64,000 nucleotides of DNA, from assembly GCA_035714445.1 (NCBI GenBank), contig DASTLY010000067.1, positions 9,498 through 73,497 on the forward strand, in the 5' to 3' direction. The stretch comes from Mycobacteriales bacterium (GTDB lineage: Bacteria; Actinomycetota; Actinomycetes; Mycobacteriales; SCTD01). Position 1 is the first letter of the stretch. Each line of letters begins with the position of its first letter. Made by a program: the position numbers and the translations under genes. Below the pieces are notes generated by a model. That model searched no databases. It saw only the letters and a program-made list of their open reading frames with translations, and had not been told where the DNA came from. Positions 3,078 to 36,349 of the stretch are shown in pieces.

Positions 3078-3219
3078 CGGCGTCGGAGCAGGCCGTTCAG
3101 CAGGACCGACCGGGTGCAGTTTCGAGGTTCGCGGGACAGGAGCGGATGCGGGAAACACTCTGCTTGCGTCACTCCCGAGGCACGGAGGCCACGATGCGTA
3201 GCAGCACCAGCAGGATCGC

Positions 3220-4986: not shown

Positions 4987-5102
4987 CTCCTCAAGTCTGC
5001 GCCCGCCCGACCGATGTCGCAGGGGCCGGCACCGCCGTACCGCGCCCTGGCCCCGACGCGCTACGGCAGTGGCGGGCCCTATCCGGACGACGCGAGGACC
5101 AT

Positions 5103-9192: not shown

Positions 9193-9230
9193 GTCCTGGT
9201 CCAGCTGCAGCGGCCCGCGCCGGTCCGCGC

Positions 9231-10014: not shown

Positions 10015-10674
10015 TCATCCCAGCCACCGGTCGAGCCCGTCGACGGCCTCGGCCAGCAGCCGCTCGCCCTCCTGCGCCGATGCGCCCGCAGGGTCGCCGA
10101 GCACGCCGTTGGCGCTGACCGCCCGGATCCCGCCGGTCTGCAGGGCCGGCAGGAGCTCGGCGAGCGGCTGCACCGCGCCGGCGGCCCGCGACGGCCCGAC
10201 CCGGCCGGGGTCCAGCGCCAGCTGCACGGAGGTCTCCGTACGGCCCGCGTGCGCGTCGCCGTCCCACGAGGGCGACCACGCCCGGACGTCCCGCGACTCC
10301 GCCCGCAGCAGGGTGACCGCGGCGCGCACCGCCTCGGCGTTGCCGCCGTGCCCGGACAGCAGGACGACGCGCCGCCAGGTGTCCGTCGCCGAGCGGCACA
10401 GCTCGACGAGCAGCAGCTCGAGCGCCGCCGTACCGATCGACAGCGTGCCGAAGAAGCCGGCGTGCTCGCCGCTGGCGCCGTACGGCAGCGCAGGCGCGAC
10501 GTCGACGTCGTCCCGGCGGGCCGCCAGCCGGGTCGCCACCGCCACCGCCACATCGGTGTCGGTCGACAGCGGCAGGTGCGGCCCGTGCTGCTCGGTGGAG
10601 CCGAGCGGCACCACGAGCACCCGGTCCAGACGGCCCTGCGCCCGCGGCCAGGTGAGCTCGGCGACCCAGCTCAC
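10015..10674 (-). CDS. mftE: mycofactocin biosynthesis peptidyl-dipeptidase MftE (creatininase family)
   Basis: Creatininase-family motifs LGSTEQHGPHLPL, SGHGGN and HAGRTETS. Position directly after mftD. Confidence 0.85.
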   Translation of the reverse strand: MSWVAELTWPRAQGRLDRVLVVPLGSTEQHGPHLPLSTDTDVAVAVATRLAARRDDVDVAPALPYGASGEHAGFFGTLSIGTAALELLLVELCRSATDTWRRVVLLSGHGGNAEAVRAAVTLLRAESRDVRAWSPSWDGDAHAGRTETSVQLALDPGRVGPSRAAGAVQPLAELLPALQTGGIRAVSANGVLGDPAGASAQEGERLLAEAVDGLDRWLG

Positions 10675-10684
10675 CAGGTTGGGC

Positions 10685-11911: not shown

Positions 11912-11916
11912 CGCTC

Positions 11917-13101
11917 CTACCTCGTCAGGCCCGCGAGCGGGCTCTCGTCGCACGCCTTGTCGGGTCTGCGCACGCTGAGCGTGACCGGGACCGGACCGCC
12001 GCGCACGCCGCCCTTGTGCGAGTGGTCCAGGGACGGCTTCGGCGCCGCCCCCGGAGTGATCTTGGACAGCGCGATCTCGCCGTAGCCCTTGACGCACTCC
12101 GGGTCGGGCCCGTCCAGCGGCAGGCCGGTGAAGAACTTCGCCGCCATGCAGCCGCCCCGGCAGGCGTCGTAGGAGCTGCAGCCCGAGCAGGCGCCGCCGC
12201 TCTGCGGCTCGCGGAGCTCCAGGAACAGCTCGGACTCCCGCCAGACCCGCGCAAAGCCGCCCTCGCTGCGCACGTTGCCGGCCAGGAACTGGTCGTGGAT
12301 CGCGAACGGGCAGGCGTACACGTCGCCGACCGGGTCGATCAGGCACACGACGCGGCCGGCGCCGCACAGGTTCAGCCCGGGCAGGGCGTCGCCGTACGCC
12401 GCAAGGTGGAAGAACGAGTCCCCGGTCAGCACGCCCTCGCCGTGCAGCACCAGCCAGTCGTAGAGCTCGCGCTGCTGCGCCTGGGTCGGGTGCAGGTCGT
12501 CCCAGACGTCCGCGCCGCGGCCGGACGGGCGCAGCCGGGTCAGCCTCAGCTGCGCCCCGAACCGGTCCGCGATGGCCTTGAACTCGTCCAGCTGACCGAT
12601 GTTGTAGCGGGTGCAAACCACCGACAGCTTGGCCTGCACACCGACGTCGGACAGGTGCTGCAGCGCGCGTACGGCGGTGTCGTAGGACCCCGTGCCGCGG
12701 ACGGCGTCGTTGACCTCGGGCGTCGCGCCGTCGATGGAGATCTGGATGTCGACGTAGGAGTTGGCGGCGATCCGGCGGGCCGCCTCCGCATCGATCTTGA
12801 TGCCGTTGGTGGAGAACTTCACCCCGACGTCGTGCGAAGTGGCGTAGTCCAGCAGGTCCCAGAAGTCGCTGCGGACCGTCGGCTCACCACCGCCGATGTT
12901 GACGTAGAAGACCTGCATGCGCTGCAGCTCGTCGATCACGGCCTTGCACTCGTCGGTGCTCAGCTCGCGGGGGTCACGCCGGCCGGAGCTGGACAGGCAG
13001 TGCGAGCACGCCAGGTTGCAGGCGTAGGTCAGCTCCCAGGTCAGGCAGATGGGGGCGTCGAGGCCGAGGGCGAAGTGCTCCACCAGCGGGACGGCAGTCA
13101 T
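11917..13101 (-). CDS. mftC: mycofactocin radical SAM maturase MftC
   Basis: Radical-SAM CxxxCxxC (TYACNLACSHC). SPASM-type C-terminal Cys clusters (CGAGRVVC..., CPF..., CSGCSSYDACRGGC). ATGA overlap with the mftB stop at 13098-13101. Confidence 0.92.
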   Translation of the reverse strand: MTAVPLVEHFALGLDAPICLTWELTYACNLACSHCLSSSGRRDPRELSTDECKAVIDELQRMQVFYVNIGGGEPTVRSDFWDLLDYATSHDVGVKFSTNGIKIDAEAARRIAANSYVDIQISIDGATPEVNDAVRGTGSYDTAVRALQHLSDVGVQAKLSVVCTRYNIGQLDEFKAIADRFGAQLRLTRLRPSGRGADVWDDLHPTQAQQRELYDWLVLHGEGVLTGDSFFHLAAYGDALPGLNLCGAGRVVCLIDPVGDVYACPFAIHDQFLAGNVRSEGGFARVWRESELFLELREPQSGGACSGCSSYDACRGGCMAAKFFTGLPLDGPDPECVKGYGEIALSKITPGAAPKPSLDHSHKGGVRGGPVPVTLSVRRPDKACDESPLAGLTR

Positions 13102-13358
13102 GCGCGCTCCTTGAGCATGTCGGTGTCGGCGAGCTGGGCCAGGGCCTTCTCGTACGCCGGCAGCTGCGCGTCGGTGAGCCCCGCCGCGGTGCAGGCCTCG
13201 CGGGCGGAGCCGGCCGCGCCGAGGCCCTGCACCACCTCGAGCAGCCGGCGGTCCTTGAGGAAGGACAGCCGGCGGGTGCCGAAGTGGTAGAGCAGCGCGC
13301 CGAAGGACTCCGGCCGCACCGAGACCTGCGGGTGCAGGTCCCAGGCCCGATCGAGCAC
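13098..13358 (-). CDS. mftB: mycofactocin biosynthesis chaperone MftB (RRE/PqqD-like)
   Basis: VVLDRAWDLHPQVSVRPESFGALLYHFGTRRLSFLKD... is typical of MftB. GTG start at 13358, 2 nt after the mftA stop. The longer track ORF (to 13484) overlaps mftA out of frame and is R/G/H-rich. Confidence 0.8.
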   Translation of the reverse strand: MLDRAWDLHPQVSVRPESFGALLYHFGTRRLSFLKDRRLLEVVQGLGAAGSAREACTAAGLTDAQLPAYEKALAQLADTDMLKERA

Positions 13359-13360
13359 GA

Positions 13361-13480
13361 CTAGTAGACGCCGCACATGCCGTCGATGGACACGTCCTCG
13401 ACCAGCAGGTCCTGCTCCACGACGGGCTCGTCGGCCTGGACCTCGACGACGGGGGCCTCGACGGTGGCGGTGGTGTCCAT
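13361..13480 (-). CDS. mftA: mycofactocin precursor peptide MftA (39 aa, not in the ORF track)
   Basis: Hand translation of the minus strand gives MDTTATVEAPVVEVQADEPVVEQDLLVEDVSIDGMCGVY-stop. The C-terminal IDGMCGVY is the canonical MftA core ending in Val-Tyr. AGGAGGA Shine-Dalgarno 5 nt upstream of the ATG (plus strand tcctcct at 13486-13492). Confidence 0.9.
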   Translation of the reverse strand: MDTTATVEAPVVEVQADEPVVEQDLLVEDVSIDGMCGVY

Positions 13481-13532
13481 GCATCCTCCTACGACGGAGC
13501 CGGACGTGTGACCGGCGTCATGGGGACCTTAA

Positions 13533-14225: not shown

Positions 14226-15659
14226 TCAGTCGGGTCTGGCGCGATGGACCGCCCCACGGGGGCTGGTCCAGGTGGTGGTGCCGTCGGGGCTCCGGGCGCA
14301 GGTCCAGCCGTCGTGCTTGAGCCGGTGGTGTTGCTTGCAGAGCGGGTGCAGGTTGGCCACGCTCGTCGGCCCGTCGGGGTGCGGGCGGCGGTGGTCGAGC
14401 TCGCAGCGCCGGGACCTGCGGCCGCAGCCCGGGAAGCAGCAGGTCGCGTCGCGGGCACGCAGCAACCGGGCCTGGGCGGCGGTCGGCTGGTAGGCGTCGG
14501 TCATCGGCGGCGGTGCGGGCAGGCCGGAGGTGAGCCGGCCGAGCAGCCCGGCCTTCGTGCGGTGCCCCTCCAGCAGCCGTGCGAGGGGGACGGCCCGGTC
14601 GTCGACGGCCACGACCTGACCGAGCGGATCGACGCAGACCCGCCGCACCTTCACCCCGCCGAGCCCGACGGGCAGCCCTGCGGGATCGGTGAGTAGCTCG
14701 GCGAGCAGTCCAGGGTCGACGGTGCCGTGCCCGAGCATCTCCGGCCCGGCCTCGTGCCGCCGACGGCGCACCCCCAGCGGGTCCCGCGAGTTCGGCGGCT
14801 CCGTTGCCATGACTGCAGCTCCGGTGGGTGCGGGGGTGGGCTCCTGGAGCAGCGCGAGCAGGTCCGGGCTGAGGTCGGCCTGGATGGTGAGCGGCTCGGG
14901 AGGGCAGACCGGGGACACCTGCCGTGTGTCGGTGACCTGCACCGGGATCTCGAGCTGCAGCTCGAGGTCCGCGGCGCTGCCCGCGCGGGCGACCAGCGCG
15001 GCCAGCAGCGCGTCTACCTGCCGCTGCCCGTGCGTGCGCTCATCGTCCGGGCCGGCCGGGCGCGACAGCACGTCCAGGATCTGGTCCGCCGCGCCCAGCT
15101 GCCCCGCCGGCCCGGTGGTCACCCAGGCGGCGAGGCCGTCCGGCAACGGCCGGAGTCGCACCCCGCTGTCCCGCTCGGCCGCCTCCTGCCGCCGACGGGC
15201 AGCCGCGGCCGGGTCCAGGCGCACCGCCGCCCGTCGCAGCGCCCGGCGGAGCTCGGCGGGCGCGCCGTCCCACCCGAGCCGGCCGCCGGAGGCAAGCACC
15301 TCGGCCAGCACCCGATCGGCCAGCGCGACGTCGCCCAGGGCGTCGATCTCGTCGATCGTCACCAGAGCGTGCGCAACGCCGAGGCGGCCGTCGCGAAGCA
15401 GCGAGCGCAGCAGCGGGTGCTCCCGCAGCGACATCGCCATCCCGAGCCGGCGGCCCACGCTCTGCGGGTGCAGCCCCAGCGCGGTGCCGGCTTCCGCGAG
15501 AACGTGCGGACGACGGCCGGCCCGGCTGTCGGGCGGGGTGGTGTCCCAGATCTCCAGCAGCGCGTCGCACTGCCGCACGAGCAGCCCGCCGGCCTCCAGC
15601 TCGAGGGCGGTCAGCGCGTCGAGCTGCGCATCGCGCTCCCGAATCAGCTCCTCGAACAT
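14226..15659 (-). CDS. DUF222 / HNH endonuclease-domain protein (REP13E12-like family)
   Basis: C-terminal HNH motif CCFPGCGRRSRRCELDHRRPH...NLHPLCKQHHRLKH. Long helical DUF222-like N-terminal part. ATG 15659 (MFEELIRERD...). Confidence 0.8.
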   Translation of the reverse strand: MFEELIRERDAQLDALTALELEAGGLLVRQCDALLEIWDTTPPDSRAGRRPHVLAEAGTALGLHPQSVGRRLGMAMSLREHPLLRSLLRDGRLGVAHALVTIDEIDALGDVALADRVLAEVLASGGRLGWDGAPAELRRALRRAAVRLDPAAAARRRQEAAERDSGVRLRPLPDGLAAWVTTGPAGQLGAADQILDVLSRPAGPDDERTHGQRQVDALLAALVARAGSAADLELQLEIPVQVTDTRQVSPVCPPEPLTIQADLSPDLLALLQEPTPAPTGAAVMATEPPNSRDPLGVRRRRHEAGPEMLGHGTVDPGLLAELLTDPAGLPVGLGGVKVRRVCVDPLGQVVAVDDRAVPLARLLEGHRTKAGLLGRLTSGLPAPPPMTDAYQPTAAQARLLRARDATCCFPGCGRRSRRCELDHRRPHPDGPTSVANLHPLCKQHHRLKHDGWTCARSPDGTTTWTSPRGAVHRARPD

Positions 15660-15934
15660 GTGTGCGAGTCTACGCGAGAACCGCGGTCGAGGCAAGGAAT
15701 GCGCAGGTCAGGCAGGGGAAGCTAGGCCGGGGCCGGGGCACGTGGACGGCCGACAACGCTCGGGCACCGCCCCTGCCGACCCGCTGCCCAGGCCGCCGCT
15801 GCGGCCCACCCGGCCTGCCCATCGACGGCAGCGACATCCGCGAGGCTGTCCCAGCCGGCCACACCGGCCCAGCGTCGGACGCGCCGCAGCCCTCACGACC
15901 CGACGGTGCGCGCCGCACTGCGCGAGAATGGCGC

Positions 15935-20394: not shown

Positions 20395-20817
20395 GTGGTG
20401 GCGGTGACCAAGCGGCCGGGGACCGAGCTGGAAGAGCTGGAGCGGGTGTACGCCAAGCTCGAGCGTCGCGCGGTCTACCGGGCCGACGGCAGTTTCGTCG
20501 GGTTGCGCAACCCGTTGCGGCCGGGCGGTATCGGCGGGTTCTGCCTCACGGCGGTGCTGACCGTCGTGATGCTGATCTGGGGCGGTACCCCCGTCGGCCG
20601 GTACCCGCTCGCGGAACGCCTGCTGGCGTACGACATCGGCATCTGCGTCCTGTCGCTGGTCGTCGGCCTGCTGCTGCTGCTGGTCAGCCGCTGGCGTACG
20701 CGGCTACGGCGCCCCGCGATAGCTGCCCTGCACACCACCACTGCCACCCTCATCGCCGCCGTGCTGGTCGTGAGCTTCTTCAGCTTCCTGCCGCTCCACC
20801 TGGAGAACTGGTTGTGA
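20395..20817 (+). CDS. hypothetical integral membrane protein (3 TM)
   Basis: Charged N-terminal 45 aa followed by three hydrophobic helices. GTGA overlap with the next gene at 20814-20817. Confidence 0.5.
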   Translation: MVAVTKRPGTELEELERVYAKLERRAVYRADGSFVGLRNPLRPGGIGGFCLTAVLTVVMLIWGGTPVGRYPLAERLLAYDIGICVLSLVVGLLLLLVSRWRTRLRRPAIAALHTTTATLIAAVLVVSFFSFLPLHLENWL

Positions 20818-21194
20818 CCGCCCCGGCGGCCACTCCCCTGCAGCAGCTGTGGCGCCAGCTCGCCATCGGCACCGGCATCGGCCTGGCCGGCGGGCTGGCC
20901 CTGGGGGCGGTGTCGGCCGCGGTGGGTTTCCCGGAGTGGACCGTCACGGCCTGGAGCTTCGTCGCGGTGCTCGCCATGATCTCTCTGCCGATGGCCCTGA
21001 TCATGCGCGCCCTCATGCACGGGGTTCACCGGCTCACGGTGATCGGCATCCCCCGGGAGCGGCGACCGCCCATGCCCGACTTCTTCCTGACCTCGTACTG
21101 GTGGGGGTACGTCATCGGCGCGGCGGCGATCGCGGCCTACCTGGTCCTGCTCGTCGTCTTCACCGTCGGCCACGACCTGACGACTCCGTTCTGA
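20814..21194 (+). CDS. hypothetical integral membrane protein (3 TM)
   Basis: VTAPAATPLQQLWRQLAIGTGIGLAGGLALGAV... with three hydrophobic helices. GTG 20814 is translationally coupled to the previous gene. The rest of track ORF 19617..21194 is R/A/G-rich artefact. Confidence 0.5.
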   Translation: MTAPAATPLQQLWRQLAIGTGIGLAGGLALGAVSAAVGFPEWTVTAWSFVAVLAMISLPMALIMRALMHGVHRLTVIGIPRERRPPMPDFFLTSYWWGYVIGAAAIAAYLVLLVVFTVGHDLTTPF

Positions 21195-21198
21195 GCCG

Positions 21199-21915
21199 TC
21201 AGCCCCAGGAGCCGTCGTCGGCCTGCCACTGCACCGAGCACGCCATCAGGACGAAGAGCTCGGTCAGCGCGGGGAACAGCGGCACGAGCGGCGTTGCGAA
21301 GGCCAACAGCAGGGTGTCGTCGCGGTCGGGCACCGGCAGGTAGACCTCCACCAGGCGCTGCCGGCCGGGCTCCCACGGCTCCGCAGGCCCGTCGTGCACC
21401 ACGCCGAGGGCGGTCACGACCTGGTCCGCGATCCGCTGCACCTCGGCCTCGGCCCCGGCCGGTACACTCAGCGGCTGCACCTCGTCGCGGACGACGACCA
21501 CCCCGCGGCTGCCGCCGAGCTCCGTGACGCTGACCTCGAGCGCGTCCTCGTGCATTGCGGCGAGCGCCTGCAGGGACGCCTCGTCGGGCAGCGGGTGGGG
21601 CAGGACCGACACCAGGCAGCTCGCGCTGATCGGCCGCCCCTGCGCCTCCACCGCGAGCACGAGCAGCATCCGGGAGTACTCCGCGCCGGCCCGACGGGTC
21701 AGCGCGACGAGGTCCTCGACCAGCTCGCGCCGAAGCGTCGCCGTACGGTCGCGGGGCGCTGCCGCGTAGCGCCTCAGGAGCCAGGCACGGGCGGCCGTGC
21801 GCATGGCCGAGGCCTCCATCGGCAGCCGGACCCACGTCGGCGGCAGCACCAGGCGGTAGCGCGTCTGCTCGGCGACCTCGACGGCGGTCACACCCGCCAC
21901 GCTCACACCCGCCAC
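21199..21915 (-). CDS. hypothetical protein, paralogue 2 downstream of the T7SS-substrate-like gene (candidate immunity/accessory protein)
   Basis: Balanced composition. Last gene of the four-gene minus-strand cassette. Shares a block pattern with the preceding gene (see findings). The start could be an internal GTG, because ATG 21915 overlaps the upstream gene by 13 nt. Confidence 0.6.
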   Translation of the reverse strand: MAGVSVAGVTAVEVAEQTRYRLVLPPTWVRLPMEASAMRTAARAWLLRRYAAAPRDRTATLRRELVEDLVALTRRAGAEYSRMLLVLAVEAQGRPISASCLVSVLPHPLPDEASLQALAAMHEDALEVSVTELGGSRGVVVVRDEVQPLSVPAGAEAEVQRIADQVVTALGVVHDGPAEPWEPGRQRLVEVYLPVPDRDDTLLLAFATPLVPLFPALTELFVLMACSVQWQADDGSWG

Positions 21916-22526
21916 GTGAGCGACGAGGCGACGGCCTCCAGGGCGGGCTCGTACAGCTCACTGTCGACGAACGAGGCGAACCAGGTGCTGAGGAAGACCG
22001 TCGTGTCGGGGACCGGCCCGGACCAGACGTGGACGACGAGCGTCTCGACCACCTGCTGGTCCGGTCCCACACCGGCCGGGCCGGGCGACACCATGTACTG
22101 CTGCACCCGCATGCCGTTGCCGGCCGGCGCCTGGATCTCGGTGACCACGGGCTCGCCGAAGCGCTCGCCGCGGTCGACCACGACGCCGTCGACCACCGCG
22201 TCGAGCGGCATCGCCGCGGAGAACACCCACAGCTCGGTCACCGACACCGGCAGCAGGTCGTCCTGCGACAGCAGGGCGTACGCCGCCGCGAGCTGCCCGT
22301 CCTCCTCCTCGGCGCGTGCGCGCAGCCGCTCGACCAGCAGCGCGTAGCTCTGCACGTACAGCTGGACCACGGGCTCCGGCTCGACCAGGCCGCGTCCCCG
22401 CAGCCCCTCGGACACGACCGTCGCCGCCCAGTCGCCCGGGTCCACCTCCTCGGAGAAGGGCACCTCGAGCCACCGGTGGTCGAGCTGCACGACCATCGCC
22501 GGGCCGACCTCCGGCGACACCGTCAT
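21903..22526 (-). CDS. hypothetical protein, paralogue 1 downstream of the T7SS-substrate-like gene (candidate immunity/accessory protein)
   Basis: MTVSPEVGPAMVVQLDHRWLEVPFSEE... ATGA overlap with the upstream gene stop (22523-22526). The upstream part of track ORF 21903..23321 is R/G-rich artefact. Confidence 0.6.
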   Translation of the reverse strand: MTVSPEVGPAMVVQLDHRWLEVPFSEEVDPGDWAATVVSEGLRGRGLVEPEPVVQLYVQSYALLVERLRARAEEEDGQLAAAYALLSQDDLLPVSVTELWVFSAAMPLDAVVDGVVVDRGERFGEPVVTEIQAPAGNGMRVQQYMVSPGPAGVGPDQQVVETLVVHVWSGPVPDTTVFLSTWFASFVDSELYEPALEAVASSLTWRV

Positions 22527-23872
22527 CGGAGCTTGCTGAGAAGGTCCGTGACGACCTGGCCGTAGCTGCCGAGGTCCCAGGCGTCGTCGATGTCCACACC
22601 GTCCGACAGGTTCCGGTAGGCCTGGCCGAGACCGTTGACCGTGCCGAGCGTGGTCGCGAGCACGCCACCGGCGGCGACGTTCCGGGCGTACCTCGCCAGG
22701 TCCTCGAGCTTGACCGCATCGGGCGCCAGGCGCGCCGGCAGGTTGTGCAGCCCCCGCAGGTCGCCGAGGATCCGGCGGGCGTGCGCGAAGTCGGTCGCGG
22801 CCGCCTTGCCACCCTGCAGGACCGCGGCGGCCCGGCTGACCGCGGGCGCTGTCGTGGCGGCCGTGCGGGCAGCGTTCATCGCGTCGAAGGCGTCGTCGGC
22901 GAGGCGGGCCACCAGCGGCGCTCCGAAGTGGCTCCCCAGGATCGGCAGGCGGGACACGAAGTTGGCCCAGGCGAGCCGCATGCCGCCGAAGGCCTCGTCG
23001 AAGGCCTGCGCACCCTTGAGGTTCGCCATGCCTGCCTTCAGCACGGGCATCGACTTCGCCAGCGCCTTGGTCACGAGTGCGCCGGCGCCGAAGGTCGCCA
23101 CGCCGACCGCGTCGTACGCCACGTCCCACCAGGAGCCGTTCCCCGTGGCCGCCAGCCCGGTGTTGATGGCGAGGGATAGCAGTCCCGCGCCCACCGAGAC
23201 GGCCACCGCGATCCAGATCATGCCGCCGGTGGCCACGGTCAGCAGGACGATGCCGGCGATGAGGATGATGACGGCCAGGACCTTGGTGACGACCTTCAGC
23301 CAGCCCGCGTTGCGGTCCCACCAGCCGTCCTTCACCCCGTCGTCCAGCGCGCCGCGGATCGTGCGCGCGGCCGCGTCGGCGGCCTCCCTGGCCTTGGTCA
23401 CCTCGTCGTCGAACAGCCCTGCCAGGCGGGCGATCTCGTCGAGCGCAGCCTGCCGCTGGGCGTTCGCGCCGACCTGCTCGGGCGTCAGGGGCACACTCGC
23501 GCCGGTGGGGTCGGTGCCGGGGGTCGCGGCGTCCCGACCGGCCGCCGCGAGCTCCTGCCGCGCCATGAAGCAGTGCCAGGCGCCGTGGGTCTGCGCGACG
23601 TCCAGGGTGTCGGACACCGTCACGATCGTGCTGCCGACCCGCTCGTACCGCTCGCGGGACGTGTCGATGTCCTTGGCCAGGTCCTCGGTCTTCTCCCGGA
23701 ACGCGTCGGCGGCCTCGGTCTCCCAGTTGTTCTCGTCGGCGCAGCGGCGCAGCAGCCGGACGGACTCCGCGATCAGCTCAGCGGTCTTCACCAGCCCGGT
23801 GCCGTACGCCTTGATCTCGTACGGGTCGGCGGGAAAGGGGTCGCCGTCGGAGAGCGGGGTGTAGTCGGGCAC
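22523..23872 (-). CDS. T7SS-substrate-like membrane protein: N-terminal WXG100/LXG-like helical domain, central 4-5 TM helices, helical C-terminal domain of unknown function
   Basis: N-terminal about 110 aa is a predicted helical hairpin with NWETEAADAFREK at the turn, resembling the W-x-G...AADAF pattern of actinobacterial T7SS-secreted polymorphic proteins. Hydrophobic stretch WLKVVTKVLAVIILIAGIVLLTVATGGMIWIAVAVSVGAGLLSLAINTGLAA plus VGVATFGAGALV. GTG start 3 nt after the stop of the small upstream gene. Confidence 0.7.
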   Translation of the reverse strand: MPDYTPLSDGDPFPADPYEIKAYGTGLVKTAELIAESVRLLRRCADENNWETEAADAFREKTEDLAKDIDTSRERYERVGSTIVTVSDTLDVAQTHGAWHCFMARQELAAAGRDAATPGTDPTGASVPLTPEQVGANAQRQAALDEIARLAGLFDDEVTKAREAADAAARTIRGALDDGVKDGWWDRNAGWLKVVTKVLAVIILIAGIVLLTVATGGMIWIAVAVSVGAGLLSLAINTGLAATGNGSWWDVAYDAVGVATFGAGALVTKALAKSMPVLKAGMANLKGAQAFDEAFGGMRLAWANFVSRLPILGSHFGAPLVARLADDAFDAMNAARTAATTAPAVSRAAAVLQGGKAAATDFAHARRILGDLRGLHNLPARLAPDAVKLEDLARYARNVAAGGVLATTLGTVNGLGQAYRNLSDGVDIDDAWDLGSYGQVVTDLLSKLR

Positions 23873-23875
23873 AGG

Positions 23876-24160
23876 TCAGTCCTTCAGCAGCTCGGTCGCG
23901 GCACCGCTGTCGAACGCGCGGTAGTTCTGGCAGATCTGGCCGAGCATGTCCCCGGCGCCGGTGATGGCCTCCACCTGCTTGTCCCGGTTGTTCTCCCAGT
24001 TGTCGGTGAACTCCGCGACCGCGTCCCGCAGCGAGGGATAGCCGAGCGCGTCCGAGGCCGCCCGCTGCACCGAGGACGCGTCACGGAACGAGCCGGCCAG
24101 TGCCGACAGCGCCCCGGCGGTCTCCTCGAGCTCGGCCAGGTCGTACCTGTAGATCGTCAT
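23876..24160 (-). CDS. small WXG100-like helical protein (94 aa, no canonical W-x-G)
   Basis: MTIYRYDLAELEETAGALSALAG...FTDNWENNRDKQVEAI...YRAFD. Its size, predicted two-helix architecture and position immediately upstream of a T7SS-substrate-like gene fit an Esx-like partner. ATG 24160 chosen inside track ORF 23876..24199. Confidence 0.55.
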   Translation of the reverse strand: MTIYRYDLAELEETAGALSALAGSFRDASSVQRAASDALGYPSLRDAVAEFTDNWENNRDKQVEAITGAGDMLGQICQNYRAFDSGAATELLKD

Positions 24161-24305
24161 CGCGCGCCCACCACCGTCCTGCGCGCCCGGCACGCACAAG
24201 ATGCCACCCTCCCAGCCCGGACGGCTCGGACGCCGCCGTCAGGGACGACACCACCCGAATGGACCAGCGGGAGGCAGCCCGCCGGGGCCGTGCCATCGTG
24301 GCCGC

Positions 24306-26337: not shown

Positions 26338-29300
26338 ATGCGCCGCTTCACCCTGGTCGCCGGGGCCTCCGCCAAGTTCTGGGAGATCTCGCGGGACGAC
26401 GCCGCCGTGACGGTGCGCTTCGGTCGGCTCGAGACGCACGGGCAGACCAAGGTCAAGGACCTCGGCACCGCGGCGGCTGCCGTCGCCCACCTCGACGCGC
26501 TGGTCGCCGAGAAGCTGCGCAAGGGCTACACCGAGCAGCCGGGTGCGGCAGCCGAGCCCGCCGCAGAGCAGCCCGCTGCCCCGCCGGTGCCCGCTGCACC
26601 GCCGGTCCCCGCCGCCCCGCCAGTGCCGGTCGAGGCGCCCGAGGACCTGGCCGACGGCTCGTTCGAGCCACCGGCCGAGGACGAGTGGTCGGTGCCGGCG
26701 GCCGCGCGGGCCTCGGTCCACCCGATCCGCGGCGTCGACCCCGCCCGGGCCCCCGACCCGGACCCGGCGCCGTACGAGCGGGCGCTGGTCCAGCACCAGG
26801 CGCGGATCCGCGCGAGCATCGACCACCCGGCCACGGAGGACGACCTGCGGCAGGCGGGGCTGGCCGCCCTCGACGGCCGGCCGACAGCGCTCGGCGAGGC
26901 CGTCCTCGCCGCCGCCGTGGTCTACACGGGTGGCTACCGCAGGGCCGCCGATCTCGCCCGCAGCGCCTGGGACAGCTGGTGGCAGCGCCATCCCGCGGAC
27001 GTCGCCGTCCAGGCCCTGCTCGAGCTGTCGTTCCTGGCGCAGGCGGAGGGCTCGGACGCCCCCGGCGTCCAGCGCTCGCCCGGCATGCACGGGAGGCGCT
27101 ACAGCACGTCGCTCCCCATGCAGGAGCGCGCCCGCCGGGCGCTGGCGGCAGCGGACGACGACGCGTACGCCCGGGCGGTGGCCGTTCTCGAGCAGGCCGT
27201 GTCCGGTCCCGACGAGCTCGCCGTGGCCGCCTACCTCGCCCCCACCCGCCGGGACTGGGTAGCCGCAGCACTGTTACCGGAACCGACGGCACAGCCCCAC
27301 CTGCGCGAACGGCTGCTCGCCAGCGCGGCGACGGCCGAGCAGGCGGCGGCCGCCTGGCAGGCCCGCTCCAGGTCCTACGTCACCGTCGACCTGTCGCAGC
27401 TGACCTCGCTCGCGGCGCACCTCGGGCCGGCCGCCACGCCGGTGCTGCTCGCCGCGCTCGACGCGGCCCCCTCCGTCGACGACGCGCGCCGCATCCTGGA
27501 CCTGCTCGTCCTGCTCCCCGGCGAGCAGACGTTCCGCGGGCTGCTGCAGCGGCTGGACGTGCGCGGCGTCTCGCCCGCGGTGCTGGCGGCCAAGGAGCGC
27601 CAGCCGTTCCGGGCGACGCGGCTGCTCGCGGAGCAGGCCGCCGGCTCCTCGGCGACGGCCAGGACCTGCGCAGCGCTGCTGCGGACGCACCTGTCCGCCC
27701 ACCCTGAGACGACGGCCGTCGCGTCGCTGCTCGACCCGCCGGCCCGCGCGGCGCTGGCGGCGGCCGTACCGCCCCGGGACGAGCGTCCGGTGGCCGACCC
27801 CGCCCAGCTGCCGGGCGTGCTCACGGCGCCGCCCTGGGAGCGCCGCGGCCCGGCAGCCCGACCGGTCGTCGTGGCCGGTCTGGTCGCCGACGTCCCGGTG
27901 CAGGTGCGCTGGGAGCCGGGCGAGCGGGAGCGGTGGCGCGTCCGGCCGGGCCGGTGGGAGCGCTTCGCCCGCGACTGGGACACCGCGCTGCGCGAGCACC
28001 GCTACTCGCGCGTCGAGCTGCTCGCCGTCGCACCGCCCGCCATCGGACGCCCCTACCTCGAGGACACGTCCGGCGCCGTCCTGTGGACCGACCTGGCGAG
28101 CGCGCAAGGCGTGCTCGCCCAGTACGAGGCGGCCGCGGTGCCGCTCCTGCTCCAGCTGGCAAGCGACAGCGCCGGTCTGGCCGAGGCCCTGCTCCCGGTC
28201 GAGTTCGGCGACGTCGCGGTGGCGATGGCCGAGTGGCTGGCGCGGCGGCGCTCGGTGCGGCCGGTCGCGCTCGCATGGTTCGCACGGCACGCCGACGCGG
28301 CCGCGCGGGCGCTCGTCCCGGCCGCCCTCGACAAGCCGGGCGCCCGCCGACGCGCCGCCGAGCGCGCCCTGCGGGTGGTCGCGGCCCAGGATCCCGGCGT
28401 CGTCGAGCGGGCCGCCGCGTCGTACGGCCCGGCGGCCGCTGCTGGGACGGCGGCGGTGCTCGCCACCGACCCGCTCGACGTGCTGCCGGCGAAGGTCCCC
28501 CCGCTACCGACCTGGCTCGACGTGCACACCCTGCCGGCCGTCCTGCTCGCCGACGGCAGCGCCCGGCTCGACCCGGCCGCCGTACGCCGGCTGCTGACCT
28601 GCCTGGCGCTGTCCGAGCCGGACGAGCCGTACGCCGGGGTGGAGCAGGCCCTGCCCGCGCTGGACCCGGGGTCGGTCGCGGCCTGTGCCCGGGGGGCGCT
28701 GGCGGCCTGGCGGCTGGCCGACGAGCCGGCCAAGGAGGGCTGGGTGCTGCGCGCCCAGGGCCTGGTCGGCGACGACGAGACCGCCCGGCTGCTGAGCCCG
28801 ATGATCACGGCCTGGCCCAAGGCGGGTGGCAGCACCAAGGCGGGGACCGGCGTCGAGGTGCTCGCGGCGATCGGCTCCGACGTCGCGCTCATGCACCTGC
28901 ACCGGATCGCGGAGCGGGCACCGTCCAAGCCGCTGCGCGAGCGGGCGGGCGTGCTCGTGGGCCAGGTCGCGGACGACCTGGGCCTGACCCCCGACGAGCT
29001 GGGCGACCGGCTGGTCCCCGACTTCGGGCTCGACGGGGACGGCCGGACCGTCCTCGACTACGGCCCACGGCAGTTCGTGGTCGGGTTCGACGAGGCCCTC
29101 AAGCCCTACGTCGAGGAGGGCGGCACCCGCCGGCCCGCGCTGCCCAAGCCCGCCGCCAAGGACGACCCGGAGCTGGCGCCCGCCGCGTACGCGCGGTTCG
29201 CCGGGCTGAGAAAGGACGTCAAGGTCGTGGCGGCCGACCAGCTGCGGCGCTTCGAGCGGGCGATGGTGGACCAGCGGCGCTGGACCGCCGCCGACCAGCG

Positions 29301-29928
29301 CCGGCTGCTCGTCGAGCACCCGCTGCTGTGGCACCTGGCCCGCCGGCTGGTCTGGGCGGTCTTCGAGGACGGGCCGCCGCGGGCGTTCCGGGTCGCGGAG
29401 GACCGCACCCTCGCCGACCGGAACGATGCCGAGTTCACCCTGCCGGGCGACGCGACCGTGGGCGTCGCGCACCCGCTGCACCTGGGCGAGGACGTCGCGG
29501 TCTGGGCCGAGCTGTTCGCCGACTACGAGGTGATGCAGCCCTTCCCCCAGCTCGGCCGCGAGGTCCTGCACCTGACGCCGCAGGAGCGGACCGCGACCGC
29601 GCTGACCCGCTTCGCCGACACGAGCATCGAGACGACCCGGCTGTTCGGCCTGGCGTCCCGGGGCTGGGAGCGCTCGTCGGCGCAGGACGGCGGCCTGCAG
29701 GACCGCCTGGAGAGGCAGCTGCCCGGCGGGCTGGTCGCCGTCGTGCACCTCGACCCGGGCATCGCGGCGGGCATGCCCGACGCCCTGCCGGAGCAGCGCC
29801 TGACCGCTGTGCACGTGCTGCCGGCCGACGCCGACCCGTACGCCGCCGGCGAGGCCCTCGCTCTCGGCGCTCTCGACGACGTCACCGCCTCGGAGGTCCT
29901 GCGCGACCTCACCCGCGTGGCGGGCTGA
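26338..29928 (+). CDS. WGR domain + long helical region + C-terminal DUF4132 protein (MolR/YehI-like, 1196 aa)
   Basis: N-terminal WGR domain MRRFTLVAGASAKFWEISRDDAAVTVRFGRLETHGQTKVKD...EKLRKGY. C-terminal block ...RRWTAADQRRLLVEHPLLWHLARRLVWAVFEDG...FADYEVMQPFPQLGRE matches my recollection of DUF4132. First gene of a coupled operon. Confidence 0.85.
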   Translation: MRRFTLVAGASAKFWEISRDDAAVTVRFGRLETHGQTKVKDLGTAAAAVAHLDALVAEKLRKGYTEQPGAAAEPAAEQPAAPPVPAAPPVPAAPPVPVEAPEDLADGSFEPPAEDEWSVPAAARASVHPIRGVDPARAPDPDPAPYERALVQHQARIRASIDHPATEDDLRQAGLAALDGRPTALGEAVLAAAVVYTGGYRRAADLARSAWDSWWQRHPADVAVQALLELSFLAQAEGSDAPGVQRSPGMHGRRYSTSLPMQERARRALAAADDDAYARAVAVLEQAVSGPDELAVAAYLAPTRRDWVAAALLPEPTAQPHLRERLLASAATAEQAAAAWQARSRSYVTVDLSQLTSLAAHLGPAATPVLLAALDAAPSVDDARRILDLLVLLPGEQTFRGLLQRLDVRGVSPAVLAAKERQPFRATRLLAEQAAGSSATARTCAALLRTHLSAHPETTAVASLLDPPARAALAAAVPPRDERPVADPAQLPGVLTAPPWERRGPAARPVVVAGLVADVPVQVRWEPGERERWRVRPGRWERFARDWDTALREHRYSRVELLAVAPPAIGRPYLEDTSGAVLWTDLASAQGVLAQYEAAAVPLLLQLASDSAGLAEALLPVEFGDVAVAMAEWLARRRSVRPVALAWFARHADAAARALVPAALDKPGARRRAAERALRVVAAQDPGVVERAAASYGPAAAAGTAAVLATDPLDVLPAKVPPLPTWLDVHTLPAVLLADGSARLDPAAVRRLLTCLALSEPDEPYAGVEQALPALDPGSVAACARGALAAWRLADEPAKEGWVLRAQGLVGDDETARLLSPMITAWPKAGGSTKAGTGVEVLAAIGSDVALMHLHRIAERAPSKPLRERAGVLVGQVADDLGLTPDELGDRLVPDFGLDGDGRTVLDYGPRQFVVGFDEALKPYVEEGGTRRPALPKPAAKDDPELAPAAYARFAGLRKDVKVVAADQLRRFERAMVDQRRWTAADQRRLLVEHPLLWHLARRLVWAVFEDGPPRAFRVAEDRTLADRNDAEFTLPGDATVGVAHPLHLGEDVAVWAELFADYEVMQPFPQLGREVLHLTPQERTATALTRFADTSIETTRLFGLASRGWERSSAQDGGLQDRLERQLPGGLVAVVHLDPGIAAGMPDALPEQRLTAVHVLPADADPYAAGEALALGALDDVTASEVLRDLTRVAG
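26575..26628 (+). repeat. 3 x 18-nt in-frame tandem repeat encoding (AAPPVP)x3 in the linker after the WGR domain
   Basis: gctgccccgccggtgccc / gctgcaccgccggtcccc / gccgccccgccagtgccg, read directly from the sequence. Confidence 0.85.
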
Positions 29929-31017
29929 GTGGCCGGGTCGGCCGACCAGCGGCCACCGGCGGAGCTCCGGTACGCCGCCGAGCTGGAGCGGCTGCGCGCC
30001 GACGACCGCGACCCGCGGCCGCCGGGCTGGCAGCTGAGCCTCACGGCCGCCCGCCGGTTCGTCGTGGGCGACCCGCGGGCCGGGGTGGAGCGCAAGTTCG
30101 TCGGTGACCCCTCGCTGGTCGACCGGGCCCTCGTCACGCTCGCGACCGGCCGGGGGCTGCTGCTGACCGGCGACCCGGGGACCGCGAAGTCGCTGCTGTC
30201 GGAGCTGCTCGCCGTGGCGGTCAGCGGCACCTCCACCTTGACGATCCAGGGCGGGGCGGCGACGACCGAGGACCAGGTCCGGTACGGCTGGAACTACGCC
30301 CTGCTCATCGCCGAGGGCCCGTCCGAGCGCTCGATCGTGCCCGCCCCGGTGCTGCGCGGGATGGCCGAGGGCAAGGTCGTCCGGTTCGAGGAGCTCACCC
30401 GTTGCGCGCCGGAGGTGCAGGACAGCCTGCTGTCGCTGCTGTCGGACCGGGTGCTGGCGATCCCCGAGCTGCCCGGTGAGCTCGGGATGGTGCTGGCGCA
30501 GGACGGCTTCAACGTCATCGCGACCGCCAACACCCGCGACCGCGGGGTGAACGAGATGAGCGCCGCGCTCAAGCGCCGGTTCAACTTCGAGACGGTCTTC
30601 CCGATCGCCGACCTCGACACCGAGCTCGCCCTGGTGACCGCCGAGGCGACCCGGCTGCTGGCCCGCTCGGGGGTGCAGGCCAGCCCCAGCCGCGACGTGC
30701 TCGAGGTGCTGGTCACGACCTTCCGCGAGCTCCGCAACGGGGTCACCGAGGACGGCGACGCGCTCGACCGGATGAGCTCGGTGATGAGCACCGCCGAGGC
30801 CGTGCAGGTCGCGCACGCGGTCGGCGTACGCGGCTGGTTCCTGCGCGGGGAGGCCGGCACCGCCGCCGACGTCGTGGAGTGCCTGGCCGGTACGGCGGCC
30901 AAGGACAGCCCGGAGGACCTCGCCCGCCTGCGCCGCTACCTCGAGCAGGTCGTGCCACGCAAGCGCGGCCGGCAGTGGCGGGCGGTGCACGACGCCCGGC
31001 ACGCTCTGCCCGGTTGA
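29929..31017 (+). CDS. MoxR-like AAA+ ATPase (YehL-like)
   Basis: Walker A LLLTGDPGTAKS. Walker B-like KVVRFEELTRC. Sensor-1 VIATANTR. Arg-finger region SAALKRRF. GTG start abuts the stop of the previous gene (TGAGTG at 29926-29931). Confidence 0.85.
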   Translation: MAGSADQRPPAELRYAAELERLRADDRDPRPPGWQLSLTAARRFVVGDPRAGVERKFVGDPSLVDRALVTLATGRGLLLTGDPGTAKSLLSELLAVAVSGTSTLTIQGGAATTEDQVRYGWNYALLIAEGPSERSIVPAPVLRGMAEGKVVRFEELTRCAPEVQDSLLSLLSDRVLAIPELPGELGMVLAQDGFNVIATANTRDRGVNEMSAALKRRFNFETVFPIADLDTELALVTAEATRLLARSGVQASPSRDVLEVLVTTFRELRNGVTEDGDALDRMSSVMSTAEAVQVAHAVGVRGWFLRGEAGTAADVVECLAGTAAKDSPEDLARLRRYLEQVVPRKRGRQWRAVHDARHALPG

Positions 31018-31027
31018 GGAGGCGCGG

Positions 31028-33277
31028 GTGAGCCTCACCGTCGTCGGGGTGCGGCACCACAGCCCCGCGTGCGCCCGGCTGGTGCAGCGCACGATCGAGC
31101 GGCTGCGGCCGGCGCACGTGCTCGTGGAGGGCCCGGCGGACATGAACGGGCGCATCGACGAGCTGCTGCTCGACCACGAGCTGCCGGTGGCGGTGTTCTC
31201 CAGCCTGCGCACCGACGAGCGGGTCCTGCGCTCCTGGAGCCCGCTGTGCGCGCACTCCCCCGAGCAGGTCGCGCTGCGGGCCGGCCGCGAGGCCGGGGCG
31301 CAGGTGCGCTTCATGGACCTGCCGGCCTGGCACCCGGCGTTCGGCGAGCGCGAGAACCGCTACAGCGACGCCGAGCGGCGCTACGCGCGGGTGCAGCAGC
31401 GGCTGTGCGAGCAGTTCGGCGTCGACAACACCGACGTGCTCTGGGACACCCTCGTCGAGGTCCCGGACGACACCGACCTCGCCGAGCGCCTCGCGGCGTA
31501 CTTCGACCTGCTCCGCGACGACCTGCCCGCCACCGACGGCGACGCGGCGCGGGAGGCGTACATGGCGGCGTGGCTGCGGGCCGCCGTCGCCGACGCGCAG
31601 GGGCGCCCGGTCGTCGCGGTCTGCGGCGGCTTCCACCGGCAGGCGCTGCTGAGGCTGGCCGCGGCGGACCCGGCCGACCCGGGCTGGCCGGAGGTGCCGG
31701 AGCCGCCCGAGGGCGCCGTCGGCGGCAGCTTCATCGTGCCGTTCTCCTTCCGTCGCCTCGACGCGTTCGCCGGCTACGCCAGCGGGATGCCGTCGCCCGG
31801 CTACTACCAGGACCTGTGGGAGGTCGGCGCCGCCGAGGCCGCGCAGCGGGTGACCCGGCGGGTCGTGCAGCGGCTGCGGGCCCGCCGCCAGCCGGTCTCG
31901 ACCGCCGACCTGGTGGCCGCCGCCGCGCTCACCGCGGGCCTCGCCCAGCTGCGCGGCCACGCCGTGCCCGCGCGCACCGACGTGCTCGACGGGCTGGTGT
32001 CGGCGCTGGTGAGCGACGCGCTCGAGGTGCCGCTGCCCTGGGCCGGGCCCGGCCGGCTGCGGGTCGGCACGGATGCCGTCGTCGTGGAGATGGTCGCGGC
32101 GCTGTCCGGCGACGCGGTCGGCCGGCTGCACCCCGACACCCCCGCGCCGCCGCTGGTGCACGACGTGGCGGCCGAGCTGGAGCGGCACGCCGTCCCGGAG
32201 GCGGGCGGGCTCACGGTCCTGCTCGCCGACGAGCCGGGCCTGTCCCGCAGCCGGGTGCTGCACCGGCTGGCCGTGCTCGGCCTGCCCGGCTGGGACCTGC
32301 TCGGGGTCAGCACCGACGGCGTGCAGGAGCGGTGGGAGTGCACGCCCGACGAGCACCGGCACGCCGCGCTGGCCGAGGCGGGGGCGTACGGCCGGACGCT
32401 CGCCGAGGCCGCCGGCGCGCGGCTCGCCGAGCGCGCCGAGCAGGCCGGGGGCAGCCCGGGCGCGCTCGCCGACGTGCTCGAGGCGGCCGTGCGCTGCGGG
32501 CTCGCGGCCGCGACCCGGCTCGTCGTGGACGCCGTGGGCGCTGCGGTCCGGACGGTCCCCGTGCTCGACGGGATGGGCGAGCTGCTCCGCACCGTCGTCC
32601 GGGTGCGCCGACGAACCCCCGGCTCCGAGCTGCTCCCGCTGCTGGGCGCCGCCGTCCGGCGCACCCTGTGGCTGCTCGAGGGCGAGACGGGCGCGCAGGC
32701 GCCCGCCGACCCCGCGCGCGAGCTCGCGGTCCTCGGCCTGCGCGACGCCGCCCTCGACACCGGCGACCGGCCCGCGGTGCTGGACCTGGCCCGCCGGCTC
32801 GCCGACGACCGGGAGCGCCCGGCCGACCTGCGCGGGGCGTGCGTGGGACTGCTGTGGGTGCTGGAGCCGACCGGCGGCAGCGGCGCCGCCGCGGCCTCCG
32901 CGGCCCGGTCGGCGACGACGCCGGGCCGGCTCGGCGACTGGCTCGCGGGGCTGTTCGCCGTGGCGCGTGAGCAGGTGCTGCTGGACGACACCGACGACGG
33001 CGTGCTGGCGGCCGTCGACGCCACCCTCACCCGGCTGACCAGCGGGGACTTCCTGGCGGCCCTGCCCGCCCTGCGGCAGGCCTTTGCGTGGTTCCCGCCC
33101 CGCGAGCGCGAGCAGGTGGCCGCCCTGCTCCTGGCCCGGCGCGGGCTGCGCGGCTCGGCCGCCGCCCTGCTGCGCACCGCCGCCGACCCGCTGCTGCTCG
33201 CCCGGGCCGCCGAGGTCGAGGCGCGGGTGACCGGGCTGCTCACCCGCGAGCACCTGCTCCTGGGCGTCGACCCGTGA
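31028..33277 (+). CDS. DUF5682-like protein (YehM-like, 749 aa) with TraB/TIKI-like N-terminal motif
   Basis: N-terminus LTVVGVRHHSPACARLVQRTIERLRPAHVLVEGPADMNGR. GAGGAGG Shine-Dalgarno 6 nt upstream of GTG 31028. Position between the AAA+ and vWA genes. Confidence 0.8.
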   Translation: MSLTVVGVRHHSPACARLVQRTIERLRPAHVLVEGPADMNGRIDELLLDHELPVAVFSSLRTDERVLRSWSPLCAHSPEQVALRAGREAGAQVRFMDLPAWHPAFGERENRYSDAERRYARVQQRLCEQFGVDNTDVLWDTLVEVPDDTDLAERLAAYFDLLRDDLPATDGDAAREAYMAAWLRAAVADAQGRPVVAVCGGFHRQALLRLAAADPADPGWPEVPEPPEGAVGGSFIVPFSFRRLDAFAGYASGMPSPGYYQDLWEVGAAEAAQRVTRRVVQRLRARRQPVSTADLVAAAALTAGLAQLRGHAVPARTDVLDGLVSALVSDALEVPLPWAGPGRLRVGTDAVVVEMVAALSGDAVGRLHPDTPAPPLVHDVAAELERHAVPEAGGLTVLLADEPGLSRSRVLHRLAVLGLPGWDLLGVSTDGVQERWECTPDEHRHAALAEAGAYGRTLAEAAGARLAERAEQAGGSPGALADVLEAAVRCGLAAATRLVVDAVGAAVRTVPVLDGMGELLRTVVRVRRRTPGSELLPLLGAAVRRTLWLLEGETGAQAPADPARELAVLGLRDAALDTGDRPAVLDLARRLADDRERPADLRGACVGLLWVLEPTGGSGAAAASAARSATTPGRLGDWLAGLFAVAREQVLLDDTDDGVLAAVDATLTRLTSGDFLAALPALRQAFAWFPPREREQVAALLLARRGLRGSAAALLRTAADPLLLARAAEVEARVTGLLTREHLLLGVDP

Positions 33278-36332: not shown

Positions 36333-36349
36333 TCGGGCAGCTGTGCGTC

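Follow-up and report, generated by a model that had tools for sequence, protein, structure and literature searches.

What do the four contiguous minus-strand genes at positions 21199-24160 of a 64,000-nucleotide stretch of DNA from an uncultured soil actinobacterium of the Mycobacteriales (contig DASTLY010000067.1) encode, and do their products depend on any type VII secretion system (T7SS)? The initial annotation of this stretch, called here the window, described them as an orphan cassette consisting of a small WXG100-like protein, a candidate membrane-targeting toxin delivered by a T7SS, and two related downstream proteins as candidate immunity factors or chaperones. The genes, designated g1-g2-g3-g4, were followed through their relatives in other genomes. 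The g2 protein possesses a T7SS-type targeting domain and a hydrophobic hairpin, five genes occur together, and relatives of the cassette are linked to an EssC-type ATPase. The reading favoured here, to which we give about an even chance, is that the cassette is a T7SS-dependent, membrane-inserting substrate module that also supplies a partner for targeting, a pair of chaperones, and a partner in the membrane.

The four genes are real and their grouping is non-random, because homologues of all four co-occur in other genomes; the cassette genes are found together in at least 17 further loci. Their tight packing on the minus strand was described correctly at the outset, with a 3-nt gap between g1 and g2 (23873-23875) and an ATGA overlap between g2 and g3 (22523-22526). 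G+C content at third codon positions is 0.95-0.97 in each of g1, g2, g3, and g4, in a window of ~75% G+C overall.

The g2 protein

The g2 gene (22523..23872, minus strand) encodes a 449-aa protein that divides into three parts on the same strand: a helical N-terminal domain resembling WXG100 and T7SS_signal proteins (residues 1-190; 23303..23872), a hydrophobic region delimited by hydropathy and conservation profile (residues 191-270; 23063..23302), and a C-terminal domain (residues 271-449 and the stop codon; 22523..23062). The N-terminal domain contains an FPADP motif and the sequence W50-E-T52-x-x-ADAF, where the wider family has W-x-G; residues 49-61 read NWETEAADAFREK.

Scanned directly against Pfam and NCBIfam, the four cassette proteins give no match above threshold. 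A word-indexed search with g2 returned 15 close relatives, all of them unannotated. An exhaustive profile search with the alignment of these 15 sequences enlarged the family to 860 cluster representatives at E <= 1e-10, or 1515 if E <= 1e-3 is allowed, and the g2 profile recovers full-length relatives at E <= 1e-30. The best 150 of the 860 are nearly all 420-510 aa long, align from residue 2, and have alignable C-termini. In the consensus of 100 relatives a true W-x-G is followed by A-A-x-x-F-R, while the subfamily of the window reads W-E-T-x-A-A-D-A-F-R. PF21725 (T7SS_signal) is matched by 51 of 100 wider relatives (best 6e-13), TIGR03930 by 30, PF06013 (WXG100) by 24 (best 7.6e-9), and WXG100_2 by 10; WXG100 is also weakly matched by eight of the 15 close members. 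A PDB profile search with the close family yielded the Streptococcus agalactiae WXG100 proteins 3gvm and 3o9o (E 0.01), with W50 placed over the W-x-G tryptophan, and one relative carries the label YukE in IMG. From the W-x-G consensus, these family and structure matches, and the YukE label, the first ~190 residues of g2 can be assigned to the WXG100/T7SS_signal type, through a link by way of relatives that is indirect but strong. The likeness to a T7SS targeting domain that the initial annotation had pointed out is supported by the matches of the relatives and by 3gvm and 3o9o. Similarity to WXG100 or LXG profiles had been proposed as a check, and its outcome is divided: the g2 N-terminus is of WXG100 type, LXG (PF04740) finds no match in g2, in the 15 close relatives, or in the 100 wider ones, and g1 scores below threshold. 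The EspA/EspE family (PF18879) is matched by four of the 15 close relatives and one of the 100 wider ones, in each case below threshold (best E ~0.01).

Just before the hydrophobic region lies an invariant DxVKDxWWDRNAGW motif. The annotated block of four to five very hydrophobic helices is smaller than proposed: hydropathy gives two strongly hydrophobic helices (~191-242) and one weaker segment (247-270) with conserved aspartates. This weaker segment contains the best-conserved block of the family, G-x-G-S-W-x-D-V-x-x-D-x-x-x-L-A-T-F-G-x-G, in a profile of 151 relatives. A prepilin-peptidase-like (GxGD) interpretation of the motif was considered and rejected, as the G-x-G and the D are not contiguous and only two to three helices are present.

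The C-terminal domain (271-449) has no match in Pfam, NCBIfam, or the PDB, and no toxin domain is recognised in g2, so that the toxin identity originally proposed for it is not borne out. Nowhere else in g2 is conservation so low: identity to three relatives is 53/29/29% in this domain, and 64/49/55% in the membrane region. The sequence of the domain diverges fast and its architecture stays constant across relatives.

The g1 protein, a conserved partner of g2

Upstream of g2, g1 (23876..24160, minus strand) encodes a small helical protein of 94 aa. It is a conserved partner of g2: homologues of g1 adjoin g2 relatives in every locus examined, down to ~25% g2 identity (hhalign 97-99%). Six g1 homologues share the invariant residues F51, D53, W55, R59, Y80, and D84, the last two of which form Y80-x-x-x-D84 near the C-terminus; in a set of 10 sequences, two distant members have F for Y80, giving [YF]-x-x-x-D. 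A Y-x-x-x-D near the C-terminus is the second half of the composite signal of T7SS substrates, and judged by its sequence the Y80-x-x-x-D84 of g1 conforms to the signal pattern Y-x-x-x-D/E.

The placement of g1 among Esx/WXG100-type proteins, as first suggested, fares less well. Scores remain below the curated cutoffs for both PF06013 (16.2 bits against 27.3; E 0.013) and TIGR03930 (14.7 bits against 44.85; E 0.027). Among six members of the g1 family, WXG100 is matched by one and DUF6507 by two (E 7.9e-5). A PDB profile search with g1 returned no WXG100 protein, and comparison of g1 with the g2 N-terminal profile by hhalign gave a probability of 0.7%. The observation that g1 lacks a true W-x-G and has DNWENN instead is accurate. 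The turn is probably formed by A-[LMFIW]-G-Y; the tryptophan that is conserved, within D-N-W-x-x-x-R, follows 15 residues later.

The g3 and g4 proteins, a candidate chaperone pair

Downstream of g2 are g3 (21903..22526, minus strand; 207 aa) and g4 (21199..21915, minus strand; 238 aa, or 235 aa with the alternative start at 21906). The start of g4 is ambiguous because of a 15-nt tandem duplication at the g3/g4 junction (gtggcgggtgtga x2; copies gtggcgggtgtgagc / gtggcgggtgtgacc). The duplication spans 21888-21915, covers the g3 stop and the g4 start, and leaves the N-terminus of g4 repeated as VAGVS/VAGVT with several candidate GTG starts. A start at GTG 21915 produces the 13-nt overlap with g3 (21903-21915) given by the initial annotation; a start at GTG 21906 leaves a 4-nt GTGA overlap and a protein of 235 aa. 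The overlap as annotated therefore stands only with the upstream start, and the public gene call for the matching contig k141_193252 (96 kb; ENA metagenome assembly ERZ27253086) uses GTG 21906.

The two proteins had been described as mutually related. Direct comparisons do not detect this (BLASTP E 0.079; probability of 0.2% in a first profile comparison), whereas once distant members are added to the alignments the two profiles match co-linearly over their full length, with a global probability of 72-90% and E 4e-6 to 2e-7, against 0.1% for a reversed control. A distant homologue of 190 aa in locus L016 aligns along its full length with g4 and is similar to the C-terminus of g3 as well, and the predicted structures present strands and helices in identical order. 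Taken together, g3 and g4 are probably distant paralogues.

No sequence family is matched by g3 or g4 in Pfam and PDB profile searches in which each homologue was scanned, and DUF1795 in particular has no Pfam match at E <= 1 in 21 g4 homologues or 10 g3 homologues. AlphaFold2 monomer models were built from the family alignments, with a predicted local distance difference test (pLDDT) of 74 and a predicted template-modelling score (pTM) of 0.70 for g4; the g3 model is of low confidence (pLDDT 65, pTM 0.55). Foldseek matches of the g4 model comprise MTC28, 3lyd (a Jonesia protein), Tsi3, LpqN, PsbP, the Eag chaperone SciW, and Mog1 (E 5e-3 to 2e-2), and those of the g3 model PsbP-like proteins, 3lyd, MTC28, Mog1, and Tli5 (E 8e-3 to 0.3). 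A Mog1/PsbP-like fold is accordingly probable for both models.

Neither g3 nor g4 has a transmembrane (TM) segment or a signal-like N-terminus, and both are predicted to be cytosolic. Conservation is higher in g4 than in any other gene of the cassette, g2 included, with 73/60/49% identity to three relatives. Because they combine this strong conservation with a predicted cytosolic location and a Mog1/PsbP-like fold, g3 and g4 are candidate chaperones. Of the two roles originally offered for them, immunity or chaperone, these properties suggest the latter, and the former fits less well.

Membrane proteins encoded on the opposite strand

The cassette was first described as having four genes. These are present as described, and a fifth conserved gene, m126 (20814..21194, plus strand), converges on g4 across a 4-nt gap and encodes a 126-aa protein with three predicted membrane helices. 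Its homologues occupy the same convergent position in two relatives, L014 (E 1.4e-29) and L013 (E 4.6e-7). With 47% and 31% identity, m126 is the fastest-evolving member of the set, and its divergence rate is about that of the g2 C-terminal domain. It is a candidate immunity protein or membrane partner of g2, and as an immunity candidate it is better than g3 or g4, for which the initial annotation, having missed m126, had offered immunity as one of two roles.

The start of m126 overlaps by 4 nt with m140 (20395..20817, plus strand; public gene call), which encodes a 140-aa protein with a charged N-terminus and predicted membrane helices; because of this overlap the two are probably co-transcribed. 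By eye, m140 has a G-x-x-V-x-(V/L)-R-N-P motif in common with small membrane proteins encoded close to the cassette in L013, L001, and L002, but the similarity has no statistical support (pairwise BLASTP E 2.3). Its membership of the module is uncertain.

The cassette in relatives

All searches for relatives were seeded with g2, g3, or g4, so that the counts below cover clusters that bear the cassette. Two gene orders occur: g1-g2-g3-g4, as in the window, and g1-g3-g4-(97-aa gene)-g2. Half of the relatives have g3 and g4 on the upstream side of g2, with another gene in between.

A larger conserved cluster surrounds the cassette in 11 contexts (L001/3, L002, L004, L005, L006, L013, L014, and L018-L021). 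It begins with genes for TadB/C, Flp, two TadE proteins, and TadG, followed by those for a ~200-aa lipoprotein-like protein, a ~330-aa protein, and a ~910-950-aa protein with several N-terminal membrane helices. Next come a 97-aa WXG-like protein without tryptophan, the cassette, small membrane proteins, and finally an EssC-like ATPase, 1468-1480 aa long, that matches TIGR03928 (E 5.6e-163) and has an FHA-like N-terminus. PDB searches with the ~905-aa and ~335-aa flanking envelope proteins found no match. The ATPase lies 1-6 kb from the cassette in eight loci (L001/3, L002, L004, L005, L006, L013, L019, and L020), which supports the link to T7SS that had been suspected for the cassette. In L001 (1-21338), L004, L005, L006, L013, and L020 the gene set of the cluster differs from the T7SS variants a-j of a recent survey (PMC11217815), and the Tad/EssC cluster of the relatives may be an undescribed actinobacterial T7SS variant.

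Two of these loci contain a second module beside EssC. In L001 (11884-15206) it comprises a small WXG100-like protein and a PGAP1-like hydrolase of 501 aa; in L013 (16959-20604) a WXG100-like protein and an Abhydrolase_8 protein of 587 aa are followed by three LppA-type lipoprotein genes. The second module looks like a lipase-type effector with lipoprotein immunity.

Other relatives have different surroundings. In Brevibacterium ihuae a g4-like gene accompanies an operon of g1-g2-g3 and a 424-aa gene, with the g3 homologue identified by hhalign at 98.7% and Tad genes 5-10 kb away. In the distant L016 the cassette converges on a Tad cluster that contains the ~330-aa gene. No EccC/EssC ATPase lies within 8-10 kb in L007, L008, L011, L016, or L017, and L017 and two Blastococcus loci have neither Tad nor EssC within that distance. 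A consistent housekeeping context, which would have spoken against the T7SS reading, is not seen; the cassette stands among housekeeping genes in the window and in L017.

The 64-kb window itself contains no Tad pilus genes, none of the three envelope proteins, no 97-aa WXG-like gene, and no EssC. Among ~12 contexts of its own subfamily it is the sole one without any of the cluster neighbours, and the label 'orphan' is for this reason supported.

Comparison with described systems

Close known counterparts are the actinobacterial PF21725/WXG100-type 'putative T7SS-secreted proteins', which share with the g2 family the helical N-terminus of ~190 residues, the D-P-x-P-x-D-P lead-in, and the W-x-G...A-x-x-F hairpin. 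Unlike them, the subfamily of the window falls under every curated threshold and has W-x-T; after the domain come a membrane hairpin that is conserved and a C-terminal domain that is uniform, with no recognisable toxin domain.

Among characterised substrates, TspA of Staphylococcus aureus (PMC7456083) and TelE of Streptococcus gallolyticus (PMC10434224) also combine a helical N-terminal targeting domain with small helical partners, a membrane-active region, and a polytopic membrane protein as immunity protein or partner. TelE, a pore-former of the T7SSb, additionally forms a multi-protein soluble pre-secretion complex, in which seven proteins include a polytopic membrane protein and an immunity protein (bioRxiv 10.64898/2026.03.12.711312). 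In contrast to both, the cassette belongs to another phylum, has no detected LXG domain, and carries its hydrophobic region centrally instead of C-terminally; the predicted fold of g3 and g4 is also unlike that of Lap/DUF3130-type factors.

The Eag (DUF1795) chaperones EagT6 and SciW of type VI secretion systems (T6SS) offer a parallel for g3 and g4, as they have the Mog1/PsbP-like fold predicted with weak scores for g3 and g4, are cytosolic, are encoded beside an exported protein with TM helices, and are more conserved than the variable domain of their cargo (PMC7773334). They differ in that g3 and g4 have no DUF1795 sequence match, SciW is a mid-ranking match of g4 with a low TM-score, and the secretion system is another one.

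In the survey of T7SS variants cited above, T7SSg and T7SSh of Bacillota always adjoin Tad genes, and T7SSd, characterised by a kinase and an Ig-like protein of 1654 aa, is the single additional actinobacterial variant described (PMC11217815). The relatives of the cassette resemble the Tad-linked variants in uniting an EssC-type ATPase, WXG-like genes, and a full Tad set in one cluster. They differ from them in phylum, since those variants are from Bacillota; the kinase and the 1654-aa Ig-like protein of T7SSd are not seen here, and the machinery is absent from the window.

The mycobacterial espA-espC-espD and espE-espF-espG-espH operons of ESX-1 likewise encode a ~400-aa substrate, a ~100-aa helical partner, and soluble accessory proteins, and espACD is an operon distant from the secretion locus. 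The differences are that the weak EspA_EspE and EspC Pfam matches are sub-threshold (E >= 0.01) and that EspG is not among the fold matches. EspA and EspE are not known to have a TM hairpin.

A proposed membrane-inserting substrate module and its alternatives

If the cassette is a T7SS-dependent substrate module, its products could act in the following order. The WXG100/T7SS_signal-type domain of g2, recognised by homology, would be the targeting head and would pair with g1, whose Y-x-x-x-D would complete a composite export signal by providing its second half. This signal would be read by an EssC/EccC-type ATPase whose gene would lie in another part of the genome. Before export, g3 and g4 might keep the hydrophobic middle of g2 soluble in the manner of Eag chaperones, as their fold, conservation, and location suggest. 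After export, the helical hairpin of g2 would enter a membrane and place the fast-evolving C-terminal domain there, with m126 as the membrane partner of g2 and most plausibly its immunity protein. The target could be the membrane of a competitor, in which case g2 would be a toxin, or the producer's own envelope.

Several points weigh against this interpretation. Taken alone, g2 has only sub-threshold matches in Pfam and NCBIfam, its T7SS family being reached via relatives, and membership of g1 in the WXG100 family is unproven by its sequence scores. The uniform length and architecture over hundreds of g2 relatives are unlike those of a typical polymorphic toxin. The top Foldseek matches of g3 and g4 belong to the Mog1/PsbP-like superfamily with weak scores (E ~5e-3 to 4e-2, TM-score 0.3-0.6), and the same fold is seen in immunity proteins (Tsi3, Tli5) and in Sec-secreted lipoproteins; binding of g3 and g4 to g2 is a proposal from fold, conservation, and location. 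As the initial annotation had noted and the scan of open reading frames (ORFs) bears out, no T7SS core gene is present in the 64-kb window, with neither EssC/EccC, EccB/D/E, nor mycosin among its large and mid-size ORFs. The cassette also occurs without EssC within 8-10 kb in Brevibacterium ihuae, L016, L017, and the Blastococcus loci.

The same components can be arranged differently. A rather unlikely but substantial alternative is that the cassette is not an effector and instead serves a Tad-linked T7SS variant as a conserved part, either accessory or structural. Here g2 would be anchored by its hairpin in the inner membrane, where the WXG-like domain would dock on the ATPase or extend the conduit, g1, g3, and g4 would be assembly factors, and the window copy would be comparable to espACD of mycobacteria, an operon remote from ESX-1 that ESX-1 secretion nevertheless requires. 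In favour of this, the cassette keeps one place in 11 contexts, behind the ~330-aa and ~910-950-aa envelope proteins and close to both EssC and the 97-aa WXG-like gene, although the seeding of the searches means that all clusters counted carry it. The single copy found per genome, the constant length and architecture of the best 150 of the 860 relatives (E <= 1e-10), the position of the most conserved block inside the membrane region, and the weak EspA_EspE matches in 4/15 members point the same way. The variable hydrolases by EssC (PGAP1-like in L001; Abhydrolase_8 with LppA in L013) look more like real toxins than g2 does, and the recurrent linkage to the Tad pilus leaves room for a role other than that of a toxin. 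A core component standing alone among housekeeping genes, as in the window and L017, would however be unusual, and the C-terminal domain of g2 and m126 evolve fast, as effector-immunity pairs do. The initial proposal, in which g2 is an antibacterial toxin whose C-terminal domain is neutralised by g3 and g4 as duplicated cytosolic immunity proteins, we consider improbable. The fold searches do return the T6SS immunity proteins Tsi3 and Tli5/PA3488, and the two genes directly follow the putative toxin gene with overlapping stop and start codons. Against it, g4 is the most conserved gene and the putative toxin domain the least, the opposite of the usual co-variation of toxin and immunity protein; g3 and g4 precede g2 in half of the relatives, with a gene between; cytosolic proteins are badly placed against a toxin inserting into the membrane from outside; and the fast-evolving membrane protein m126 is the better candidate.

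It is quite improbable, in our estimate, that the cassette is unrelated to T7SS export and belongs to a Tad pilus or general envelope complex, with the WXG-like domain as a helical interaction module. Tad genes do lie within 10 kb in three lineages, namely the metagenome-assembled clade, Brevibacterium ihuae, and L016, the last two with no EssC in view, and the cassette stands among housekeeping genes in the window and L017. The family of the N-terminal domain is nevertheless tied to T7SS targets by both Pfam and NCBIfam, EssC is adjacent in eight loci, housekeeping surroundings are not consistent across the orthologues, and adjacency of Tad and T7SS genes is known in other T7SS variants, with no functional link shown (PMC11217815). 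A further reading, compatible with the substrate module favoured above, joins two claims and is in our estimate rather unlikely. In it g3 and g4 would be the first T7SS chaperones with a Mog1/PsbP-like fold, shielding the TM hairpin of g2 in convergence with Eag, and the cassette would be part of an undescribed Tad-linked T7SS variant of soil Actinomycetota, of which the window holds a detached substrate copy. The machinery of that variant would consist of EssC with its FHA-like N-terminus, the tryptophan-less 97-aa WXG-like protein, and the three envelope proteins.

Surroundings of the cassette in the window

The cassette promoter is presumed to lie at 24161..24305, in the stretch that separates g1 from the divergent acetoacetyl-CoA synthetase gene. 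A promoter scan found no sigma-70-like consensus there and is uninformative at 75% G+C; promoter and terminator scans and a repeat search around the cassette revealed no signals and no insertion scars.

Apart from the acetoacetyl-CoA synthetase gene, the flanks contain rpiB, nei, a DUF429 gene, a MoxR/VWA set, mycofactocin genes, sensor kinases, and peptidases. A subtilase gene at 3202-4986 was considered as a mycosin and rejected, as its product has an I9 propeptide and a fn3 domain. The mycofactocin cluster occupies 10015-13488 on the minus strand and continues towards lower coordinates; it includes MftA, MftB, and the radical-SAM protein MftC, according to the public gene calls, and a creatininase-family gene at 10015-10692. 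On the plus strand, four genes at 26338-34398 encode a 1196-aa protein without a Pfam match, a MoxR-type AAA_5 ATPase, a DUF5682 protein, and a VWA_CoxE protein, and together look like a conserved ATPase/VWA system. At 4569-7856 (plus strand) and 58868-64000 (minus strand) are genes for two hybrid sensor kinases of very large size, both with receiver domains; dCache, PAS, and Hpt domains are present as well in the latter, which extends past the end of the window.

An HNH endonuclease gene (46935-47468) and a DUF222 gene (14226-15707) are both on the minus strand. Actinobacterial DUF222 genes are often HNH-associated, and the two could be mobile or selfish elements amid housekeeping surroundings. 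Two segments, 8001-10000 and 36001-38000, combine ~80% G+C with a strong positive AT skew (0.23 and 0.32, respectively). In an ORF at 36599-37555 the first codon positions reach 97% G+C; this ORF is without a Pfam match and may encode a low-complexity Ala/Gly/Pro-rich protein or be no gene at all.

Implications

The N-terminal domain of g2 is of a known kind. A literature search on DUF6507, on PF21725/T7SS_signal, and on T7SS with DUF1795 found no paper on this module. Four features do not appear to have been described: the architecture with a membrane hairpin, the pair of Mog1/PsbP-like proteins, the small membrane partner that is conserved, and the Tad linkage in Actinomycetota. Since relatives of the cassette occur in the culturable named species Brevibacterium ihuae and Blastococcus haudaquaticus DSM 44270, experiments are feasible.

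At present g2, g3, g4, and m126 are 'hypothetical' proteins without a Pfam family, and defining them would annotate many genomes. The recurrent linkage of Tad and T7SS genes supplies an actinobacterial case for a question that the survey of T7SS variants did not settle (PMC11217815). The way in which T7SS substrates with TM helices are kept soluble ahead of export is just beginning to be understood, and this in Firmicutes alone, for TelE and TspA. A widespread actinobacterial family of this size (860 representatives at E <= 1e-10) with dedicated cytosolic partners would constitute a second, independent system and a direct parallel to the Eag chaperones of the T6SS.

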